From NCBI GenBank assembly GCA_964531275.1, contig CAZHDZ010000005.1, positions 12,545 to 76,544 of the forward strand: a DNA stretch of 64,000 bases, read 5' to 3'. Below are positions 6,464 to 61,124 of the stretch, piece by piece (position 1 is the first letter of the stretch; the number at the start of each line of letters is the position of its first letter). Source of the stretch: an uncultured Gammaproteobacteria bacterium. GTDB lineage: Bacteria > Patescibacteriota > Microgenomatia > Levybacterales > GWA1-39-11. The notes beneath the pieces were generated by a model. The model ran no database searches. It was not told the DNA's origin and saw nothing but the letters and a program-made list of their open reading frames with translations. Made by a program: the position numbers and the translations under genes.

Positions 6464-7132
6464 CTATGGAGTAATTATTACGTCAAGATCACCTCTAGAA
6501 GGTTTTAGCTTTTTTTGCTGACCGCCCTCTATAGTGTAGAGTTCTGAGAGTTTGAGATCATAGGAAAGTGTTGCTTTGCTTGATTGTTTGTTGGCCGTTG
6601 GGGTAAAGGTTATTGTTGCAAATCTGCCAGAGCCTACAACAGGCGTTGATCCTTCAGGGAGTGAAAAGGAAATAACTACATTCCCAGGATTGTATTTTAC
6701 AGTAGAAAAGAATGCATTCGGGACTATGGAGGTGGTGCCTGTTATTGTTTTTACTTGGACATCACTGACTGTATAAGGGTCATACTTTAATACTACTTTT
6801 CCACCCGAAATACCTGTGGATGTTAGTGTTTGGAGATTTAAGTCAACGGTTGTAGGCGTTGCATTGATTGCGGTTAGGTTATATGTTGAAAAGCCTAATG
6901 ATACTTGTATATTTAACGGATTGCCAAGTTTTTCTGCGCTAGGTGCTATTGTCCCTTTCTTTACTGATACTGATTTGAGCATAAAGAAAGTAGCTATGAT
7001 GATAACTAAGAGTATCCCTATCGCCCCAAGAGAGATTAGTAATTTTTTCTTTCCAGACTTTTTGACTTGTTCTGGAGGTATTTGGGTTGTGGGCAGTTGT
7101 TCTTCCATATAATTTAGTAGGGATTCTGGCAT
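6464..7132 (-). CDS. Membrane-anchored protein with cohesin-like module
   Basis: TM anchor (LLISLGAIGILLVIIIATFFML), then LTAINATPTTVDLNLQ...VVLKYDPYTVSDVQV...GRFATITFTPTAN, which resembles the cohesin-like module of ORF 356-2479. Confidence 0.45.
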   Translation of the reverse strand: MPESLLNYMEEQLPTTQIPPEQVKKSGKKKLLISLGAIGILLVIIIATFFMLKSVSVKKGTIAPSAEKLGNPLNIQVSLGFSTYNLTAINATPTTVDLNLQTLTSTGISGGKVVLKYDPYTVSDVQVKTITGTTSIVPNAFFSTVKYNPGNVVISFSLPEGSTPVVGSGRFATITFTPTANKQSSKATLSYDLKLSELYTIEGGQQKKLKPSRGDLDVIITP

Positions 7133-8868
7133 GTGCCTGTTGTGCCGGTCCCTACGCAGAACCCTCCACAGCCGCTACATGCGATATTACTTCCAGCATT
7201 GGGTCCGGACATATTATTTGCGCTTGGGTTGCATGGCCTACCTGGTAGATTACAAGACCCACCAGCGGGGGGGGCACCTTGCGGAAGCTGACAGCAAAGT
7301 GCTTTGTCAGTATTGTAAAACGCTTTACATGCATCATTTCCTCCAGAATTTAGTACCTCACTTCCCATACAGGTATCTACATTGGCTCTGCAAACCTGAT
7401 GGATATTTGATGCAGGGATGTAGTCATTGCAAGTGCTACCCGTTGATACTGGTGTTACTGTGGCGGTTGGTCCGGTTGCGGCGGTTGGAGTAGGAGTTGC
7501 TTCCGGAGTTTTGCATGTATTATCTCTCCACTCAGTGCCTGCAGGGCAGCATCGACCTTGACTTCCAGACACGATGCATACATTTGGTACTGCACACTGC
7601 CATGGGCCCTGTACTGGATTGCATAGGCCGCCTTGAGCTGTAGGCACAAATGGAGTAGGGGTAACAGTTGTTACGGGTGTTACTGTTGGGCTAGGTGATG
7701 TAGATCCTCCGCCTGTTCCTGGGGCACATATGTAGAAATATCTTTGTTGTGGGTATTTCCAATCGCAGTAATCATCGTATCCGGAAGGATCATTGGGTCT
7801 TTTTCTTTCTTGCCAGAGCAAGTTGTTGGTAGCGGTTGTCTGAGACGTAGCACATGAGGCAGTTCCTTGAGGTTGTAATGTGGTGTAGGTTGGGACGGAG
7901 TCACCGCAGTAGCCGTTCCCTGGAGGGGTTGGAGTTGGAGTGCTGCTGCCTGCGCCATTATCGGGACCAAGAGGACTCCCACCTGTCTTTTTGCAACACG
8001 TTCCGCCCTTGCTGCCGCAACTAAAATAAGTGGTTTTTGGTTGGGGAGAATTATAGGTTGAATTACAGGATGGTAGGCACATATACAATTCTTCATTTGG
8101 GCCTGTAAGCTCACAGTGATTATAGGTTGATTCTAGGCATCTGCCGGATGATCTACTGCAGCTTCCTGAATCACACACAGCATCTTGGTATATCGTAGTT
8201 CCTCCCGGTTTGAAGGCACAGATGCTTCCGGGTGTAAGACTTCCATGTGTTGCACAGGATCCCTTGCCGACACCGACTCCCTCTGGTTGCACACAAGATT
8301 GAGATGAGCTGCAGTAAATACCAGCCCCGCAAAACTTGTCGGTTGATCCCAGGCTTACACACTTTCCGGTTGTTCTGCTACAAGTTCCAGTTCCGCAAGC
8401 TGCGTCTCTATAAAAGGTAGTGCCTCCAGGTTTGGAAACGCAGACAGCATCAATACCCAGACTTCCATTTGTAACACATTCGCCTTGACCTACGCCTGCA
8501 CCAGCAGGTTGTACGCAGGATTCTGAGGTACTGCAGTAAATACCAGCCCCGCAAAACTTGTCAGCTGAACCTAGCTCTACGCATCTACCCGTTGATCTAC
8601 TACAAGAGCCGGAAATACAAGCTGCGTCTCCATAAAAAGTAGTGCTTCCAGGCTTGAAAGAGCAAACATCGCCTGTATTGAGGGTTCCATTCGCAGCGCA
8701 TGATCCTTTACCTACACCTGCACCAGCTGGTTGAACGCAAGTTTGAGTTGAGGTACAGGTTATACCAGCTCCACAATTTTGGTCAGCGAAGCTTTGATTT
8801 ACATTTACAATACCGAAGGTAAAAATGAGTATAAGAGAAGCCAATGTAAGAATAAATAATTTCATCAT
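7114..8868 (-). CDS. Secreted cysteine-rich protein with three tandem ~75-aa repeats
   Basis: Signal peptide MMKLFILTLASLILIFTFGIVNV. Repeat FCGAGIYCS(T/S)S(E/Q)SCVQP(A/E)G(A/V)GVG(Q/K)G.C...G...C..KPGGTT.Y.DA.C.SG.CSR..G.C occurs three times, plus a Cys- and Thr/Pro-rich C-terminal half. DNA copies are diverged except for a ~30-nt identical core at about 8313-8343 and 8533-8562. Confidence 0.6.
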   Translation of the reverse strand: MMKLFILTLASLILIFTFGIVNVNQSFADQNCGAGITCTSTQTCVQPAGAGVGKGSCAANGTLNTGDVCSFKPGSTTFYGDAACISGSCSRSTGRCVELGSADKFCGAGIYCSTSESCVQPAGAGVGQGECVTNGSLGIDAVCVSKPGGTTFYRDAACGTGTCSRTTGKCVSLGSTDKFCGAGIYCSSSQSCVQPEGVGVGKGSCATHGSLTPGSICAFKPGGTTIYQDAVCDSGSCSRSSGRCLESTYNHCELTGPNEELYMCLPSCNSTYNSPQPKTTYFSCGSKGGTCCKKTGGSPLGPDNGAGSSTPTPTPPGNGYCGDSVPTYTTLQPQGTASCATSQTTATNNLLWQERKRPNDPSGYDDYCDWKYPQQRYFYICAPGTGGGSTSPSPTVTPVTTVTPTPFVPTAQGGLCNPVQGPWQCAVPNVCIVSGSQGRCCPAGTEWRDNTCKTPEATPTPTAATGPTATVTPVSTGSTCNDYIPASNIHQVCRANVDTCMGSEVLNSGGNDACKAFYNTDKALCCQLPQGAPPAGGSCNLPGRPCNPSANNMSGPNAGSNIACSGCGGFCVGTGTTGTCQNPY

Positions 8869-15406: not shown

Positions 15407-17731
15407 TTAAGCGGCGATAGGTGGTGCAGTTGGAGTTCCGGTATTTGGATCTTCAACGGGGGTAGTAGGAATAGTTTCGGATCCAACAGTGCTTAACGGT
15501 GCTCCGCTTATTGCAGCAGCTACTTGCTCAGGAGTTTGAATTTCAGCTGTTGCCCCAGGAAAAGCAGATATGTTATCGGCAGTCGCTGCTGGAGCTTCCG
15601 TGCCAACGAGCGATGGTGCAGCTCCACTAGTTGCTGCGTTTATTTGTGCTGTGCTTTGAACTTCAGGGGTTACTCCTGGAAGTGCAGACATATTGTCTGG
15701 CAATGCAGTAGCAGTAGGTGTTGTTTCTGCAACAGCATCCGTGCCTATGGTTGTAGTGGTGTTAAGATCAGCAGCTATTTCTGGCTGAGTTGTAACTGAC
15801 TGTGTCTCAAGTGTTGCTGCGGGGAAAGGTGTTATATTGCTATTTTCTTCCGCTACATCTGCAGTTGAGGCGTCAGTGGTTACAGATGGGCTTGTCTCTG
15901 AAGTAGTTACCGCTGCAGGTATTGCAGGTTCTGCTGGGGCAGCAATATCTGGAATTGCAGGTAATACATTTCCATCGGGTGCAGTTATTTGAGTGGGGGT
16001 TATCTGGGGTGCTATCTCTTGAGACTGAACTACGTTGGTTGGAGCTGCTTCATTTGGTATTGCTGGATCTGTTACGGTTGCAGAATTTTCAGCTGGAGCT
16101 ATTGCACCGGTTAAATTAGAAGCGCTCCATTGATTTTCATTTGATGGATTTGCATCTGGAAGTGGCGTAGCGATAGCTTCAATTGGGGTATTTCCTGTTG
16201 TATCAGCTGTTGCATTTGCAACTACTTCATTTGCTTGAGCTAAAGTTGGATTCTCAATCGCAGGTGCGGTTGCTCCATCAGCTGGAAGTGCGTCACCTGT
16301 TGCTTCTGCATTTGCCGCAATGTCTGCAGCCTGAGTAAGAACATCAGTAGGAGCTGTGGGTTCTTGTGAACCGGTAATTGTCCCTGCTGTAGAGGTTTCA
16401 GAAAGACTTCCACTTGTTGCCTCAGCATTTGCAACTACTTCATTTGCTTGAGCTAAAGTTGGATTCTCAATCGCAGGTGCGGTTGCTCCATCAGCTGGAA
16501 GTGCGTCACCTGTTGCTTCTGCATTTGCCGCAATGTCTGCAGCCTGAGTAAGAACATCAGGTGCTGCGGCAGCTGGAGCAGCTGGCATTTCTAATGGTTG
16601 TTCTACGGCCAAAGGATCTGGTGTTGGTGCTTGTGCTTCGGGTAGGGCGGAAGCTGTAACGTCAGCGCTTAGAAGACCGTCCACGGGAGGAGTATAGGGA
16701 GGTGCGCTTTCTTCAGAACCCGTTACTGAGAGGGGATCGAGATTTGGTGCTTCATTTTTTGCAGCATTTGCAGCATCTTCTGCTGCGCCCGCGGTTGCGG
16801 CAGCATTTCTATCATAGTCAACTATTTCAGGATGAGCAGCAGCATCTGCTACAGGATCACTTACAGCCTTTGCTGCTTCAATAGGCGTAACGGTACTGTC
16901 AACTGTAGAAGCATCAATGGCAGTTGAAATGGGGGGTGCAACAAGCTCGTTGGATGGGGGTTGCGCGCTGGTACCTGGGAATTCCTGTGCGGGACCTGGA
17001 GCCGGTTCTACATTGAGATTTAATGATTCAGTCGCAGTAGCAGGGTCTGCCGTAGAAGGTGAGGATATTTCGGGAGTAGTCATTGCGGGTTGTTCTATAG
17101 CGGCTGGTGTTGATTCTGTTTTGTTCCAAGCTTCTTCAGCTGTTTTGTGAATCTCATCCATTGCTGCATCTAGTGATCCTGGGGTTCCGGTTGAAGGCGC
17201 ATCTGGAAGTTGTGAATTTCCTCCAAGTACTTTGTTTGCACTTGCTTCAGCAGCTTGAGCTTCTGGTGTTACTCCGGGTACAGGAGGTGTTGAGCCTCCG
17301 GCAAGAGCTGGGGGGACTTCTATTTTTGCTACTTTAGGTTCACCGGGTGCAAATCCCAGTCCTGGGCTCACCTCTGTTTTTGCAGCAACTGCTGTAGCTT
17401 TTGGTGCGTTGGGATCTTCATAAGTCTTTTGGATTGGATTCAGTTTTCCAAGAAATCCAAGGAGGCCACCTTTCTTATTTGGATTTGCTGCAGCTGCAGC
17501 AACTTCATTTGCTTTTTTTTCAGCAATTGCTCCAGGACCTGCGGTTTCGGACATATTGCCACTAGCAAGAACGCTACTAACTCCACCGAGGGAAGGGTTT
17601 TCAAGTGCAGGGGTACCAGTTAAGCTTGCCGCGCCAGCACTGGCTTGATCTAATACGTTTTCGGTTGTGGGTACAACTACTTGAGGGGCTTCTGCAACAG
17701 GAGCACCTCCGTTTGCTAATGGTTCGGACAT
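15407..17731 (-). CDS. 774-aa acidic, Ala/Pro/Thr/Glu-rich low-complexity (probably disordered) protein with an internal exact repeat; no signal peptide
   Basis: A continuous 774-codon ORF in AT-rich DNA. Repeated peptide DVLTQAADIAANAEATGDALPADGATAPAIENPTLAQANEVVANA occurs twice. No TM or signal peptide at the N-terminus. Confidence 0.5.
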   Translation of the reverse strand: MSEPLANGGAPVAEAPQVVVPTTENVLDQASAGAASLTGTPALENPSLGGVSSVLASGNMSETAGPGAIAEKKANEVAAAAANPNKKGGLLGFLGKLNPIQKTYEDPNAPKATAVAAKTEVSPGLGFAPGEPKVAKIEVPPALAGGSTPPVPGVTPEAQAAEASANKVLGGNSQLPDAPSTGTPGSLDAAMDEIHKTAEEAWNKTESTPAAIEQPAMTTPEISSPSTADPATATESLNLNVEPAPGPAQEFPGTSAQPPSNELVAPPISTAIDASTVDSTVTPIEAAKAVSDPVADAAAHPEIVDYDRNAAATAGAAEDAANAAKNEAPNLDPLSVTGSEESAPPYTPPVDGLLSADVTASALPEAQAPTPDPLAVEQPLEMPAAPAAAAPDVLTQAADIAANAEATGDALPADGATAPAIENPTLAQANEVVANAEATSGSLSETSTAGTITGSQEPTAPTDVLTQAADIAANAEATGDALPADGATAPAIENPTLAQANEVVANATADTTGNTPIEAIATPLPDANPSNENQWSASNLTGAIAPAENSATVTDPAIPNEAAPTNVVQSQEIAPQITPTQITAPDGNVLPAIPDIAAPAEPAIPAAVTTSETSPSVTTDASTADVAEENSNITPFPAATLETQSVTTQPEIAADLNTTTTIGTDAVAETTPTATALPDNMSALPGVTPEVQSTAQINAATSGAAPSLVGTEAPAATADNISAFPGATAEIQTPEQVAAAISGAPLSTVGSETIPTTPVEDPNTGTPTAPPIAA
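16212..16560 (-). repeat. Two perfect 136-bp direct repeats (16212-16347 and 16425-16560, period 213 bp = 71 codons) inside the low-complexity CDS
   Basis: The identical string gcatttgcaactacttcatttgcttgagctaaagttggattctcaatcgcaggtgcggttgctccatcagctggaagtgcgtcacctgttgcttctgcatttgccgcaatgtctgcagcctgagtaagaacatcag occurs twice. Confidence 0.85.
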
Positions 17732-54999: not shown

Positions 55000-55840
55000 A
55001 TTTCTTTTTCTGTTTTGGCTGTGGTTTGTTAATGGCATCCCCTTGGAATGCAAAAGAGGATGCGAAACAGACCACGCCAAATACACCAACCGCAAATGAG
55101 AATAATGTTTGGATTTCTCCTTGCCTTGCAATAAACAACATCGCAACCCGCTCAATAATAGGGAGTATGATAGCAACCATCCCGCTAGCATCTTTTGATA
55201 AAACTGTAAATAATCCAACAGAGGCAAATTGTGCAATGTGGAAAAGAATAAATCCACCTATCGCACTTAGTAGAAATGTAATTCCAACCCAGCGAAAACG
55301 GCTTTTATTATCAGGTGATCTTATAATTATAACAATAATGCTTAGAACCATAAGAATGCTTAGTGCTGGAAGAAGAATGGATACGATAGTATGACCAAGT
55401 CTAAGTCCTGCAAGGGCATCTCCCAAAGGGTACGAAAAATCATTTTCTTGAAGCGTTTTTATGAATTCCTGTGGGTTACCTTCTAGAGTGCTATTGCCAT
55501 CTGATGAATCGACCTCGCTTGGGATTTCTGAAAAGTCGTCAAATGATTCCTGAATGTCTGGGTTTTTGGCTAAGAATTCCTCTTTTATATCTTTAAAGGA
55601 AATTGTCGGTACGTTTTCGGTTTTGCCCGTTATCCAGTAGGCGGAATCATCAATGGCCCTATCAACTTTTCCCTTAATGTAGCCTGATGTAATAGGGGGA
55701 AAGTCTATTTTTTTATAGAGGCCGCTTTGTGACAACTCGTTTTTGATTGTGGTGGTAGATATACCGCCGTAGGAAATGGTTGCAAGGAGTATGACAAAAG
55801 GGGCTGTTGTTATAAAAAAGAGAAGGGCAAGGAGTCTCAT
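54992..55840 (-). CDS. Hypothetical integral membrane protein
   Basis: N-terminal TM, a central soluble region, and C-terminal TM helices. Confidence 0.45.
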   Translation of the reverse strand: MRLLALLFFITTAPFVILLATISYGGISTTTIKNELSQSGLYKKIDFPPITSGYIKGKVDRAIDDSAYWITGKTENVPTISFKDIKEEFLAKNPDIQESFDDFSEIPSEVDSSDGNSTLEGNPQEFIKTLQENDFSYPLGDALAGLRLGHTIVSILLPALSILMVLSIIVIIIRSPDNKSRFRWVGITFLLSAIGGFILFHIAQFASVGLFTVLSKDASGMVAIILPIIERVAMLFIARQGEIQTLFSFAVGVFGVVCFASSFAFQGDAINKPQPKQKKKST

Positions 55841-55843
55841 GGG

Positions 55844-56296
55844 TTAGACATATGTCCTTACATTTTGAATAATATCTTGAGGTGTAACATTTGATTTTAT
55901 GAGAAATGCGTTCGCATTTCCAAAAAGCTTTGTCTCTCGTATCGAGTCTATATCTCCTGCATTTGTTAATATAATTACAGGCAATTTTTCAAATCCAGGA
56001 AGCCCTCTTAGGGTTCTGAGCATAGTTTTGCCATCCATGACAGGCATCATGAGGTCCAACAGAATAATGTCGGGTCTTTGTGCTTGTGCTATTTCAAGTC
56101 CTTTTAGGCCGTTTTCTGCTGAAATAACCTCAAGCTGTTCTGCTTTTAGCACTTCTACATACAAATTGCGTAGGGCTTCATCGTCTTCCACGACAAGAAT
56201 CTTTTTCATTTTGGCAGCAGGTGGGGCGGCAGGAGACGTAGCAGGTGTCTCCTGAGGCTTATTTGATCCAAATCCAAGCTTATTTAATAGTCCCAT
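55844..56296 (-). CDS. Single-domain response regulator (REC only) with N-terminal Pro/Ala-rich extension
   Basis: KKILVVEDDEALRNLY...DIILLDLMMPVMDGKTML...IILT. Paralogue of 59268-59714. Confidence 0.8.
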   Translation of the reverse strand: MGLLNKLGFGSNKPQETPATSPAAPPAAKMKKILVVEDDEALRNLYVEVLKAEQLEVISAENGLKGLEIAQAQRPDIILLDLMMPVMDGKTMLRTLRGLPGFEKLPVIILTNAGDIDSIRETKLFGNANAFLIKSNVTPQDIIQNVRTYV

Positions 56297-56439
56297 ACCC
56301 CATATTACCTTTGTAAGAATTTTATGTCAATTTCATTGTATTTTGACCTTTTTATGATATGATTTGACAGCTTTTCTATCCCATAGCAATTTGCAGACTT
56401 GTTTTGCAATTTTTGCGTGCTATGGATATGGACAAAGCT

Positions 56440-57530
56440 GTTCTTTAAAAATCTGTTATTTTTCGGCGAGAGCAAATTGAGGTAAAAGATTGCCTGCGTT
56501 TGCGCTCGCCGGAAAGGATGAGCGGAAAGAAGGAGGTTGGGTTGACAAAAAAACCCTCACGTCGTCCTTGGCTTGCGCTCCTGGTTGCCGTGTTCATCGC
56601 GGCTACTGCAGGTGCAGGCCCGCTGGCAACCGCCAGCGCAGTACCGGTCAGTGACCCTAGGGTCACCCCTGGCTGTAACGGCCAGGATGACTTCGGGTTC
56701 GCATATACGGCGTTCGCGACAGGAGTAATTACCAACAAGGGCACGGCAACGTGCTCGGTATACTTCCTCGCGTACAACACGTACGATTGCGCGCCTATCA
56801 GCCAGTGTGGTAAGGGTCAAGATCTGGTCGGCACTGCCGGCCCCGTGACCCTGAAGCCGGGATCGTCTGTCACGCTAGTCGTGAACGTTCCTAACAGCGT
56901 GTGCAAGCTCCAATTCGATCCCCTCGTGGGATGGTTGGGAGCTCCACTCGGACACCTCGCAGGTGGTGCAGAGTATGGCACTGAAATGCTTGCACAAGGA
57001 GTCGGCATTACTGCTGACAATCCCAACTGCAGGCAGCCAACACCGACCCCGCCACCGCCAACACCTACGCCGGTTCTGACACCGTCGCCGACGGCAACGC
57101 CTACGTTGCCACCGCCGCCGACTCCGACGTCGCCTCCGCCTACCGCGACCCCATCGGCCACGCCGACGGGAACACAGTCGCCCACCGCGACACCATCGGC
57201 TACGCCGACTGGTACGCAGGTACCGCCCACGGCAACGCCTACGTTGCCACCGACCCAGGGTCCAACGACCCCACCGACGGCAACGCCGGTTGTAACTGCT
57301 CCACCGAGTAATGTTCCGAAGCCGCCGAGTGCGGGTACGGGCATGATCGAGTTGATGTCGACCCCTGTTGGGGCTGGCTTCCTACTCATGATGGTGGGTG
57401 CAATTGCCGCTGCGCTTACTATCGGTTTTGGCTTCGGCCAGGGACGTAGGTCCAAGAGGTAGCGTTCATCCAGGCAGATCTTTTCCGGCGCCCGTGGCTT
57501 CATAGCTGCGGGTGCCGGACCTTTTAACAA
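56440..57530 (+). other. High-GC island 1 (about 1.1 kb, visibly about 60-65% GC against a flanking genome near one-third GC) carrying one gene
   Basis: Abrupt composition change at about 56460-56490 and about 57525. All six frames are open in this stretch, a high-GC artefact. Confidence 0.8.
56500..57462 (+). CDS. Foreign-composition secreted protein: signal peptide, Cys-containing beta-sandwich-like domain, Pro/Thr-rich linker, C-terminal hydrophobic anchor + basic tail (GRRSKR)
   Basis: Signal peptide ...WLALLVAVFIAATAGAGPLATASA. PTPTPPPPTPTPVLTPSPTATPTLPPPP... linker. C-terminus GAGFLLMMVGAIAAALTIGFGFGQGRRSKR. High-GC codon usage. SD aaggagg. Confidence 0.6.
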   Translation: MRSPERMSGKKEVGLTKKPSRRPWLALLVAVFIAATAGAGPLATASAVPVSDPRVTPGCNGQDDFGFAYTAFATGVITNKGTATCSVYFLAYNTYDCAPISQCGKGQDLVGTAGPVTLKPGSSVTLVVNVPNSVCKLQFDPLVGWLGAPLGHLAGGAEYGTEMLAQGVGITADNPNCRQPTPTPPPPTPTPVLTPSPTATPTLPPPPTPTSPPPTATPSATPTGTQSPTATPSATPTGTQVPPTATPTLPPTQGPTTPPTATPVVTAPPSNVPKPPSAGTGMIELMSTPVGAGFLLMMVGAIAAALTIGFGFGQGRRSKR

Positions 57531-57977
57531 TTAGAAGACTTCAACTCGGGTTCCCATGGGAGCCCAGTCATAGACCCACTTAGCATCTTCAACTCGAAGA
57601 TTAACGCATCCATGGGAAGCACGTGATCCAAATTTATTGTGCCAGTAGGTACCATGAATTGCATATGCGCCTTTGAAGAACATTACATACGGAACATCCT
57701 TTAGAAAATAAGGCTCATACGGTGGGTAGTTACCTTTCATATTTTGCTTTTCGTTCTTGATGTAGATTTTAAAGCTCCCCTTTACGGTTGGGGTGTAACG
57801 CATTCCTGTTGAAACAGTAAATTCCTTCTGTATTCTTCCACCTTCCCACGCGTAAAGTCTTTGCTTTCCTATATCTACAGTAATGAGTTTGTCTGTAGTT
57901 AGAATGTCTGCGGCAAATGAAGATTTAGGGAATAGAAAGAATAGAAAAAGGAGAGTGGCTAATAAAATCTTTCTCAT
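57531..57977 (-). CDS. L,D-transpeptidase (YkuD domain)
   Basis: Signal peptide, then catalytic HGTYWHNKFGSRASHGCVNL (His...Cys). Confidence 0.85.
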   Translation of the reverse strand: MRKILLATLLFLFFLFPKSSFAADILTTDKLITVDIGKQRLYAWEGGRIQKEFTVSTGMRYTPTVKGSFKIYIKNEKQNMKGNYPPYEPYFLKDVPYVMFFKGAYAIHGTYWHNKFGSRASHGCVNLRVEDAKWVYDWAPMGTRVEVF

Positions 57978-58021
57978 ACAATCTACTATACAACATCTTT
58001 ATTTGAATCTATAATATCGGG

Positions 58022-58462
58022 ATGTTAAATGAAGAAGGAATTCCTCCACGTCAAGATCGTTTTATGTCAGTACTTGCTAGGGTAAGTGAAATGCCTGCGT
58101 GCAGTAACTCACTTGAAGCATATGGATTACTTTCGAGGGTTCTTAATAGTGCCGAAGACGAAATTTTTGGAGATCATTGGGAGCCTCCTCGTACTTTTCT
58201 TGATGGAAAAAGAACTCCAAGAATTTACCCAATACACCCTGAAAGCTTTCATCCTGTAGAAGGCTTTTCAGGCGTTACCCTAATGATTGCAAAGAAGGAA
58301 TACGTGATAGTGAGTAGATTTGGTGCAATGGAAGTGCAAACAAAAATTCCTGACGACCTTTATGGAGCTAATTTGCATTTCTCAGAAAGGAATGATCAAG
58401 TTCTCTGGCAAAAAACAGACGCTTACGGTGATGGTGTTTGGCATGATAAAAACAGAACGTAA
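58022..58462 (+). CDS. Hypothetical protein
   Basis: ORF only. Confidence 0.35.
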   Translation: MLNEEGIPPRQDRFMSVLARVSEMPACSNSLEAYGLLSRVLNSAEDEIFGDHWEPPRTFLDGKRTPRIYPIHPESFHPVEGFSGVTLMIAKKEYVIVSRFGAMEVQTKIPDDLYGANLHFSERNDQVLWQKTDAYGDGVWHDKNRT

Positions 58463-58501
58463 GTGGCAATTGGGTTAAATTAGTGGTATTATTCCCTTCA
58501 A

Positions 58502-59267: not shown

Positions 59268-59714
59268 TTACATCAGATCAAGAAGTGTTGCTATTGTCTG
59301 TTGAGGAGTAACATTTTCCTTTATCAAAAATCCTTTTGCCCCGTCATAGAGTTTTACCTGTCTTATAGTGTCGATATCACCTTTATCTGAAATTACAAGA
59401 ACGGGCGTAATTTTATACTCAGGAATGGCTCTTATATGATGAAGTAGTTCCTTGCCATCCATTACGGGAAGATTTAGATCTATTAAGATCATAGTTGGCT
59501 GAAAAGTTAGAAGCATATTGAGTGCTTCAGCACCATTTACAGCAGATCCAACCGTATACTTGTCTGTCGGCAAAAGTTGGATGTATTGTGCTTTTAATGC
59601 AGGATCAGCCTCAACAATAAGAATCTTTGGAAGATCAGATGCTATTGGTGTAGGAATTTTTCCTTCTCCTTCTTTGCCAGCTGCAAATATCATTAATTTA
59701 TCAAGTATCCCCAT
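59268..59714 (-). CDS. Single-domain response regulator (REC only), paralogue of 55844-56296
   Basis: PKILIVEADPALKAQY...MILIDLNLPVMDGKELL...VLVIS. Same MG(I/L)L(D/N)KL N-terminal extension as the paralogue. Confidence 0.8.
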   Translation of the reverse strand: MGILDKLMIFAAGKEGEGKIPTPIASDLPKILIVEADPALKAQYIQLLPTDKYTVGSAVNGAEALNMLLTFQPTMILIDLNLPVMDGKELLHHIRAIPEYKITPVLVISDKGDIDTIRQVKLYDGAKGFLIKENVTPQQTIATLLDLM

Positions 59715-60255: not shown

Positions 60256-60329
60256 TAATTTAAGTTCAAAAGTTTTATATTAAAGTTTGAAAAACATCTT
60301 ATAGTATGTTATAATTTACAGCTTTTTGA

Positions 60330-61090
60330 ATTCATGCTCAATCCGTGTGATAGAGAAAAGCGTACATTTACAAGGAATCCATACAAGGCTTTCTCATTGG
60401 AGAGATATCGTCTCTGACGAGAAAGCCTTTGTATCCGATACTGACAAAGGTGGAGGAAGTTCATGCCAGAAAAGCGGTGTAGGCTGCTTATTGTGGGATG
60501 CGCTATTATAGCGATCATCCTTGCGACTATTGTCATGCAGGACTCACCTGCGGGGAATGAGAAAGAAGTTGATGTCGAAGACATCTACGCAACCCTCATC
60601 CCAGAACCACCACGCCAACTCACAGGTACGTACTGTGACCAGCTGCGCCAATATGTGCCGCAGGACGAAGCTGAAGCCATGAAATGGGCGGAAGCACTCA
60701 TTCGCGGCAACGCGAAGGGGCGCATCCTCATCATGAGGTTCATCTGCGGCAAAGACGACAAGGCCATTTATGGCTTTGCAATCCATCCCGGAGATGAGAT
60801 TGTAACCCTCATCCCCGCTCGCGGGGAAGTAATGGGTGCAACCGTCGAAATGACACTGCTTGACGGCTACGTCATATCCGGGACTACAACAAGAAGATCT
60901 AAGCCGGGCCAGAAGCCCGTGCCCGAGATTATTCTCGTCGCTGGCGGACCAGGCAAGGTCATCGGTACATCCTACGTTGTCAGCTTTCTGAGCGACGACA
61001 AATATCGGTAAGGATTTCATTGCTGCAAATGGGGTACCCTCAAGGGTGCGGCACTTCGGACTTTCCGAGGAAAACCCCACTTACTAAATT
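60330..61090 (+). other. High-GC island 2 (about 0.75 kb, visibly about 55% GC, clearly above flanking DNA near one-third GC) carrying one gene
   Basis: Composition shift relative to the flanks. A GC-rich hairpin (ttcggactttccgagg) follows the gene. Confidence 0.7.
60463..61011 (+). CDS. Foreign-composition hypothetical membrane-anchored protein
   Basis: N-terminal hydrophobic segment (LLIVGCAIIAIILATIVM; possible lipobox IVGC). Strong SD aaaggtggagg. High-GC codon usage. Confidence 0.5.
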   Translation: MPEKRCRLLIVGCAIIAIILATIVMQDSPAGNEKEVDVEDIYATLIPEPPRQLTGTYCDQLRQYVPQDEAEAMKWAEALIRGNAKGRILIMRFICGKDDKAIYGFAIHPGDEIVTLIPARGEVMGATVEMTLLDGYVISGTTTRRSKPGQKPVPEIILVAGGPGKVIGTSYVVSFLSDDKYR

Positions 61091-61124
61091 TCATTCACCT
61101 TTTGAATTCTGATACACTGTATAT

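Follow-up and report, generated by a model that had tools for sequence, protein, structure and literature searches.

A GC-rich gene for a putative stalked surface protein appears to be long resident in an AT-rich genome, probably of the Patescibacteria/CPR

The 64-kb window analysed here (the whole stretch of DNA under study, 64,000 nucleotides of contig CAZHDZ010000005.1) carries on its plus strand a single gene, at 56542..57462, that is far richer in GC than the DNA on either side of it. How does such an island come to stand in an AT-rich genome, and what keeps it GC-rich? An earlier note on this DNA had proposed either a recent horizontal acquisition from a high-GC donor or a chimeric assembly join. 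Comparison with relatives of the gene points elsewhere: with a probability of about 0.78, this is a native, long-resident gene with its own promoter, leader and terminator, which encodes a fast-evolving stalked surface protein and whose GC-rich coding sequence is actively maintained.

The island itself is real and sharply bounded, as the earlier note had stated. A two-change-point likelihood fit over positions 55500-58500 places the GC shifts at 56492 and 57520, with a GC content of 0.619 inside and 0.391 outside, and with support intervals of two log-likelihood units at 56464-56555 on the left and 57512-57584 on the right. The previously proposed junctions at about 56460 and about 57527 are consistent with these intervals, and a GC content above 60% inside is likewise confirmed; however, a jump within about 30 bp claims a precision that cannot be demonstrated, and the flanks are at about 39% GC rather than one-third. 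At the first, second and third codon positions (GC1, GC2 and GC3) the GC content of the island gene is 0.60, 0.64 and 0.61, respectively, and its GC3 departs strongly (z = 7.6) from that of the 63 other open reading frames (ORFs) in the window (0.311 +/- 0.039). Its codon adaptation index of 0.469 is the lowest of the 65 window ORFs, and the index is at least 0.63 in every other gene of the window except that of a second GC-rich island, here called island 2 (0.527). Codons of the form NCG make up 29-47% of their families in the island gene compared with 5-10% elsewhere, and the gene has a CpG odds ratio of 0.92-1.28, compared with 0.59-0.75 for four of the five flanks of measurable length. Only one other gene of the window shows the same anomaly, namely that of island 2 at 60463-61011, with a GC3 of 0.59.

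An apparently simple explanation would be that the GC-richness is a by-product of a protein rich in proline, threonine, alanine and glycine. The GC2 of 0.64 would fit such an origin, as would the fact that the stalk region of the protein is the most GC-rich part of the gene, at up to 73%, but the explanation is hardly credible: the head region alone has a GC3 of 0.60, synonymous choice is shifted in every codon family of the gene, and two other window genes rich in the same amino acids keep a GC3 of 0.36 and 0.23. The latter two genes underlie GC bumps at 7114-8868 and 15407-17731, respectively, and as their GC3 is native, the GC of these bumps stems from amino-acid composition. Both are large ORFs on the minus strand with high GC1 and GC2 and without a Pfam match, the one at 7114-8868 having a signal-peptide-like N-terminus, and they indicate that a protein with many GC-coded amino acids can be encoded here in the genome's own codon usage. 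All six reading frames are open across the island, as had been observed before, but the observation is uninformative, since the longest antisense stop-free stretch (214 aa) lies within the range of synonymous-codon shuffles (175 +/- 38 aa, with 19% of the shuffles reaching 214). An overlapping antisense gene was rejected for the same reason.

The relatives of the gene decide between artefact, import and long residence. Fifteen further loci carrying it (L001-L012 and L016-L018) were identified in independent assemblies, on contigs drawn from NCBI, ENA, JGI and Logan with lengths that include 80, 88 and 353 kb, the last being that of L005. The first relative came from a word-seeded search of 5.8 billion proteins and lies on a 1.5-kb contig (L001), where a 62% GC orthologue is preceded by the same low-GC upstream region and followed on its 3' side by the same low-GC transpeptidase gene; its protein is 61% identical to that of the window overall and 65-68% identical over the head. 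A metagenome scan yielded L002, and a scan of species-representative genomes with the flank proteins yielded L003 (an 88-kb contig, CAZEEU010000002.1). Seven true relatives (P0002-P0005 and P0007-P0009) emerged when 1.84 billion representative proteins were searched exhaustively with a profile, and tracing these and their cluster members added L004-L012 and L016-L018. The whole family amounts to approximately 14 sequences in 15 billion, and the exhaustive protein search suggests about one family copy per genome. The family was not found in species-representative genomes, nor in viral contigs. A four-sequence word-seeded protein search found nothing, not even the known relative, which reflects a limit of the tool. 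One relative originates from municipal wastewater or river water (PMC9405806). The L002 orthologue contains an in-frame TAG at codon 74 (L002 2071-2073), aligned with a leucine codon of the window, which may represent a pseudogene, a sequencing error or a polymorphism; P0004, a full-length protein related to the L002 orthologue, is intact.

The genomic context of these loci is shared to a large extent. L002-L012 and L016 have neighbour genes in common with the window, or at least the leader, and the flanks match those of the window wherever they are present, save for local gain and loss of neighbours and with the exception of L017, whose neighbours are different. In all 13 loci measured, the gene has a GC content of 0.53-0.62 and a GC3 of 0.58-0.75, in flanks with a GC content of 0.34-0.45 and neighbour genes with a GC3 of 0.21-0.47; for instance, the GC3 of the gene in L017 is 0.67 compared with 0.30-0.47 in its unlike neighbours. 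A chimeric join of a high-GC fragment into a low-GC contig could have produced the sharp boundaries at intergenic positions, and this had been one of the two original proposals, but the chance of it is negligible. Independent assemblies from different samples show both junctions again, or one of them, and the sequences there remain collinear in spite of their divergence. The orthologous loci, which the earlier note had suggested searching for an empty site, gave none: twelve of them keep some of the window's neighbour genes, and not one of the 12 lacks the gene. The suggested search for a donor lineage likewise came back without any high-GC homologue, as all seven relatives from the profile search reside in low-GC DNA.

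The gene also appears to be old. Between the window and L001, its closest relative, the synonymous divergence (dS) of the neighbouring transpeptidase gene is approximately 1.7, and divergence at four-fold sites in the flanks is 0.6-1.2 to L003 and L005 and from 1.1 to saturated for L009, L010 and L011. Over the same span the third-position composition of the island gene has stayed nearly constant in five lineages (A.17-.19, C.26-.32, G.35-.38, T.12-.22), and its high GC3 persists in at least nine lineages despite the turnover of synonymous sites in the flanks; its NCG codons and its undepleted CpG have persisted as well. An imported gene should lose most of its excess GC3 over such a time, and none of these lineages, at least nine in number, did so; the composition is thus maintained and is not the fading mark of an import. 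It is accordingly very improbable that the gene was recently acquired from a high-GC donor, for instance a host of the actinobacterial or Chloroflexi-like kind, and the first of the original proposals is contradicted by same-GC orthologues in related genomes whose flanks are near synonymous saturation. It is true that the gene has a foreign appearance at each codon position and in its dinucleotides, where CpG is not depleted, and that island 2 is a strain-specific GC-rich orphan, so that GC-rich DNA may enter this lineage. However, neither viral contigs nor the 1.84 billion representative proteins yielded a homologue outside the clade. The promoter and leader accompanying the gene are AT-rich, and the locus is without mobility genes, tRNA genes or meaningful flanking repeats, its neighbours being of housekeeping type.

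A transfer into the ancestor of the clade is a different matter, as it concerns the origin of the gene only and would leave the composition to be held by a force of later date. Compatible with such an event are a composition that looks foreign at every codon position and an architecture resembling that of Gram-positive wall-anchored proteins. It is nevertheless unlikely, although it retains an appreciable probability: no donor family could be detected, the unit includes an AT-rich leader, and the persistence of the composition would be left unexplained. A maintaining force would still be required, and an ancient transfer therefore does not compete with long residence under maintenance as far as mechanism is concerned.

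That the island encodes a functional protein follows from its substitution pattern. The ratio of nonsynonymous to synonymous rates (dN/dS) is 0.13-0.24, well below 1, which indicates a real coding gene under constraint. At the same time the protein evolves several-fold faster than its neighbours, with a dN of 0.24 in the head compared with 0.04 in the transpeptidase for the same genome pair. The coding sequence coincides with the GC island and comprises 306 aa and a TAG stop codon (57460-57462); its TTG start at 56542, set by alignment of orthologues, lies five bases after an AAGGAGG sequence. The single coherent plus-strand gene described in the earlier note, with a signal peptide, a cysteine-containing domain, a Pro-Thr linker, a hydrophobic anchor and a basic tail, is recovered in full. 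The predicted Sec-type signal peptide (56542..56640, MTKKPSRRPWLALLVAVFIAATAGAGPLATASA|VP) would be cleaved after Ala-Ser-Ala, at residue 33, and its pattern of a basic stretch, a hydrophobic stretch and small-x-small residues is kept in the orthologues, as judged by eye; a Tat-like 'SRRPW' within it is not conserved, being GRPW in L001.

The mature protein begins with a head domain of about 133 aa (56641..57039) with four to six conserved cysteines, which overlaps an exchangeable block at approximately 56575-57018. An AlphaFold2 model built on a nine-sequence alignment has a mean predicted local distance difference test score (pLDDT) of 89.7 and a predicted template modelling score (pTM) of 0.83, on the basis of which the head is confidently predicted to be a disulfide-bonded beta-sandwich; an earlier model from a two-sequence alignment was unusable (pLDDT 46). 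No significant match to the head was found in PDB or BFVD with Foldseek, or in a profile search of PDB sequences. Weak partial profile matches were obtained to three long repeat proteins, of which, by eye, one has DUF11-like and one Calx-beta-like repeats; they agree with an immunoglobulin-like, adhesion-type fold and are not evidence of membership. The head is followed by a Pro/Thr-rich stalk of about 90 residues with degenerate repeats (57040..57315), proposed to be long enough to cross the wall. Next comes the conserved motif PKPPSAGTG (57316..57342; family consensus P-x-x-P-S-[ATS]-G-[ST]-G), in which P259, P262, S263 and G265 do not vary among 10 proteins whose identity to the window protein is otherwise 33-66%. 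All full-length members end in a hydrophobic helix and a basic tail (57367..57459 in the window, with a helix of 24 residues at 57367-57438 and the tail RRSKR at 57445-57459); the helix would span the membrane and the tail would be cytoplasmic.

This C-terminal layout resembles that of a sortase-type sorting signal with a non-canonical motif, as [AP]-P-S-[ATS]-G, in place of LPXTG, is positioned 8-12 residues ahead of the helix. The PS[ATS]G motif is a candidate processing or sorting site, which could be read as a variant of LPXTG by resemblance only. Two features expected of a sortase substrate, a secretion signal and a hydrophobic segment with a positively charged C-terminal tail, are present. 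A likeness of the motif to the (S/P)PXTG motif of Clostridioides difficile sortase B may also be noted. None of the family members is matched by a Pfam or NCBIfam model, anchor models (Pfam Gram_pos_anchor and NCBIfam LPXTG) included, and no real ORF with the TLxTC sortase signature was detected in the window or the relatives' loci, which represent partial genomes only. Sortases are present in some genomes of the Candidate Phyla Radiation (CPR; PMC7143001).

The variation of the head among close relatives is of an unusual kind. Across about 1.7 kb of upstream flank and leader, the identity between L003 and L004 is 100%; it falls to approximately 45% over about 480 bp of the head and then returns to 98-100%. 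Similarly, L016, on an 80-kb contig from another dataset, aligns with L003 at 99.2% identity for 6160 bp on one side of a stretch of about 430 bp that cannot be aligned, and at 98.6% for 6466 bp on the other. Two contigs that agree at about 99% over 12.6 kb thus differ by a clean replacement of the head; the L016 protein is encoded on four contigs of 50-200 kb. The crossovers lie in conserved signal-peptide codons (AAACCCGCAGGTCGTCCTTGG) and in the NPNC codons at the start of the stalk. The two head classes are about 38% identical in protein, and each is present in more than one lineage, one of them in the window, L001, L004 and L016 and the other in L003 and L005. Near-identical contigs with crossovers in conserved codons point to homologous recombination among deeply diverged, old allele classes. 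A shufflon, an inversion or a retroelement target was rejected: no inverted repeats or recombinase sites were detected at the locus, and no part of the gene is repeated elsewhere in the window, so that the template and variable repeat pair of a diversity-generating retroelement is missing. Moreover, the alleles differ by indels and at about 55-60% of positions, and not at adenines alone.

Programmed variation in the manner of the Borrelia vls locus, with the head rewritten from silent cassettes, deserves separate consideration. A GC-rich gene for a variable surface protein in an AT-rich genome is just what that locus presents, and whole-head replacement between near-identical contigs might be produced in such a way. 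This is nonetheless highly improbable for the island gene. A search of the 64-kb window and of 13-21 kb around four relatives revealed no silent cassettes, second copies or fragments, and the family has about one copy per genome. GC skew is close to zero for the head and falls to about -0.3 along the stalk, whose coding strand is C-rich, and neither the strongly positive skew nor the G-runs on the coding strand that such a system would lead one to expect are present. Finally, the same head was recovered repeatedly without variation.

The gene is inherited together with its regulatory regions, and these differ from it in composition. A putative promoter at 56336..56363 on the plus strand consists of a -35 element TTGTAT (56336-41), a 16-nt spacer and a TG-extended -10 element TATGAT (56358-63); we infer it from the sequence, as a consensus scan did not report it, and its elements are conserved in L002, L003, L005, L007 and L010. 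Given the start site that this promoter implies, a low-GC structured 5' leader of about 172 nt would follow (56370..56541, +). It is conserved together with the gene in all lineages, and a folding energy of -70.9 kcal/mol was obtained for 56362-56550 (z = -5.4 versus shuffles). Its first stem, P1 (56381..56425, +), pairs CCATAGC with GCTATGG around a variable insert and is identical in the window, L002 and L003, and therefore shows no covariation. The second element, hairpin P2 (56461..56514, +), which is followed by the conserved GGAAAGGAUGAG, does covary: 13 of its 21 pairs carry compensatory changes among 10 sequences, 92.8% of cells pair compared with 35-52% when the partners are slid, and none of 500 shuffles reaches its score. 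A Shine-Dalgarno sequence, AAGGAGG (56530..56536, +), stands five bases ahead of the start codon; it is conserved in the window, L001, L002, L003, L005 and L012 and nearly so in L007, L008, L009 and L010. The leaders of the window, L002, L003, L005, L007-L010 and L012 also share a linear motif, GCAGyaCATTAAnAATCTGT, as well as GGAAAGGAUGAG just ahead of the ribosome-binding site. No Rfam family matches the leader, which resembles an undescribed cis-acting RNA and, with its covariation, may be regarded as a candidate for one. Downstream of the gene, a terminator hairpin (57484..57519, +) with a perfect 16-bp GC-rich stem is followed by ACCUUUU (-33 kcal/mol, z = -5.2) and is conserved in L001. 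In L012 and L017, where the neighbourhood is a different one, leader and coding sequence are still found together.

The GC-rich zone therefore comprises the coding sequence and the terminator stem, and the promoter and leader are AT-rich (the leader being at about 35% GC). This arrangement disfavours import from a GC-rich donor, which would be expected to bring GC-rich non-coding DNA along, as well as GC-biased gene conversion, which should be strongest on the anchors of recombination. The latter process, acting at a recombination hotspot without selection on composition, would have in its favour that recombination at the locus is directly demonstrated and that recombining bacterial genes reportedly tend toward higher GC3 (Lassalle et al. 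2015, PMC4450053). The strength needed is also modest, as by our own arithmetic a GC3 of 0.62 versus 0.30 corresponds to a population-scaled coefficient of about 1.3. Conversion is improbable all the same. The conserved leader, the anchor at which heteroduplex would be expected, has remained at about 35% GC, and the diverged heads, at approximately 40-45% identity, are too different for heteroduplex to form. The usual effect of GC-biased conversion is, in addition, far below a difference of 0.3 in GC3.

What remains is a force on the coding sequence or on the transcript, by which the GC-richness would be held; the coincidence of the island boundaries with the coding sequence, the AT-rich leader and the joint inheritance of leader and coding sequence all point in this direction. 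Selection on mRNA stability or on translation kinetics appears the most likely of the possible forces, though it is put forward tentatively, on the indirect evidence of a hairpin beside a strong ribosome-binding site and of a strong terminator. A more specific and somewhat more doubtful possibility is that the GC composition itself has been selected and functional throughout the history of the clade, coupled to the structured leader, and would yield a transcript that is long-lived or resistant to AU-directed RNases, or would set the speed of translation for export; the same design may recur in island 2. As for the protein, it is plausible that the head contacts a co-evolving partner, which might be the surface of a host cell or a phage that uses the head as its receptor, and that the head polymorphism is kept by balancing or diversifying selection.

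Several points weigh against a native, maintained gene for a sorted surface protein, and they concern different parts of that reading. The mismatch between the codon usage of the gene and that of its genome argues against simple selection for high expression. No LPXTG or C-terminal sorting-domain model matches the 10 members (E <= 0.1) or the window protein (E <= 1), and neither a sortase nor a second motif-bearing protein was found in the 64-kb window or in the loci of the relatives; the surface location of the protein, its mechanism of sorting and the selective agent are predictions. Identical recoveries without variation (L005/L006 and L010/L011) indicate that head exchange is occasional and not frequent, and thus no high-frequency switch. 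The rates given above are rough, as dS is near saturation, and polarised synonymous counts, as used for an amelioration test, were dominated by a parsimony artefact. The comparison sequences are all metagenome assemblies, and we infer the assignment of the organisms to the CPR from their gene content alone, with one related record labelled Gammaproteobacteria. The gene content in question includes a half-length EF-Ts, a treble-clef zinc-finger protein and DUF4230. The family is confined to a small clade of low-GC, small-genome bacteria, which probably belongs to the Patescibacteria/CPR. The labelled record is L003, which bears the title 'uncultured Gammaproteobacteria bacterium'; the genes it contains, and the fact that it is collinear with the window, point to a CPR-like organism, and the label is probably wrong.

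The genes on both sides of the island are native and low in GC, as the earlier note had recognized. Upstream, and divergent from the island gene, lies a receiver-only (REC) response regulator (55844..56296, minus strand; PF00072, E = 8.6e-22; GC3 0.31), an orthologue of which adjoins the island gene in L003-L006, L010, L011 and L016. As it shares an intergenic region with the island gene, it is a candidate regulator of the latter. A paralogous receiver-only regulator is encoded 3 kb away on the same strand (59268-59714), the two having similar N-terminal extensions, MGLLNKL... (55844-56296) and MGILDKL... (59268-59714). Downstream, and convergent with the island gene, lies a gene for a secreted YkuD L,D-transpeptidase (57531..57977, minus strand; PF03734, E = 4.1e-30; GC3 0.38), whose product is about 92% identical to that of its counterpart in L001. 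In the window only 68 bp (57463-57530) separate the island and transpeptidase genes; a gene of 202-228 aa without a known domain is located between them in L003 (7636-8358), L005 (11024-11632) and L016 (7134-7742) and is missing from the window and L001. A further ORF of 146 aa without a Pfam match (58022-58462) occupies the place of a HAD-type hydrolase gene of L003 (6422-7192), L005 (12113-12940), L011 and L016, with Hydrolase_3/S6PP assigned in L005, L011 and L016; this is a local gene replacement in an otherwise collinear region.

Two other observations concern more distant parts of the window. Island 2 (60256-61124; ORF 60463-61011, plus strand) encodes a GC-rich orphan of 182 aa with an N-terminal membrane or signal segment, and has an AT-rich leader with a long inverted repeat (approximately 60381-60434) and a hairpin past the stop codon. 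It is a true insertion of about 850 bp, as its two neighbours lie 20 bp apart in L003, L005 and L016. Three independent short contigs (L013-L015) encode this protein, again next to the same neighbours, and no further homologue was found in 5.8 billion proteins. At the other end of the window, the ORF at 356-2479 on the minus strand encodes a protein of 707 aa that weakly matches cohesin, PKD and dockerin domains; such a protein would amount to a scaffold module of the cellulosome kind in a bacterium with a small genome.

Parallels to the island gene may be drawn from several known systems, none of which it matches in full. Sortase-anchored Gram-positive surface proteins with a variable tip and a conserved wall-spanning region, such as streptococcal M protein, have the same order of signal peptide, variable distal domain, Pro-rich segment, motif, hydrophobic segment and basic tail, and their alleles are likewise mosaics made by recombination. 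The island protein differs from them in its [AP]PS[ATS]G motif in place of LPXTG, the lack of an anchor-model match and the absence of a sortase nearby; in addition, its head is predicted to be a small beta-sandwich where the M protein is a coiled coil, and its gene is compositionally foreign to its genome. Its leader recalls the stabilising leaders of abundant envelope-protein mRNAs such as those of ompA and S-layer genes, which are long and carry a stable hairpin near a strong ribosome-binding site, and a strong terminator adds to the likeness; there is no sequence or Rfam relation, and the likeness is one of resemblance only, the function of the island leader being putative. The nearest precedent in composition is the Borrelia vls locus, where the cassettes have 49.1% GC in a chromosome of about 28.6% in all strains, taken as a sign of strong selection on composition (PMC11499132); as with the island, a variable surface locus is about 20 points more GC-rich than an AT-rich genome across strains. 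The island gene differs in being single-copy, with no cassettes found and with no positive GC skew or G-runs, and in that a whole domain is exchanged between strains and not rewritten segmentally within a cell. A hypervariable surface gene with Pro/Thr repeats in a Gracilibacterium, read as being under diversifying pressure (Sieber et al. 2019, PMC6851277), shares with the island the theme of an unusual, locally hypervariable gene with Pro-Thr-rich repeats in a CPR bacterium. There, however, the number and order of PTD repeats vary, whereas the island gene swaps its globular head on a comparatively conserved stalk. What is new in the island family is the combination of a maintained compositional island, exchange of a head block and a dedicated structured leader, probably in a CPR lineage.

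With a GC content about 23 points above its background, the island would be called a recent transfer by composition-based detectors, even though it is old and vertically held, and it thus provides both a counter-example and a test case for the local maintenance of composition. Its leader is a candidate new cis-acting RNA with covariation support. The protein family is uncharacterised, and the trading of its head classes between contigs that are about 99% identical is what one would expect at an interface under co-evolution, for example where a cell attaches to its host or receives a phage, in ultrasmall bacteria whose surface biology is largely uncharted. If the GC composition is indeed selected, this would be the second clear case, after Borrelia vls, in which selection holds a bacterial compositional island, and it would concern a single-copy gene with a head that strains trade among themselves, plausibly where an episymbiont meets its host or phage.

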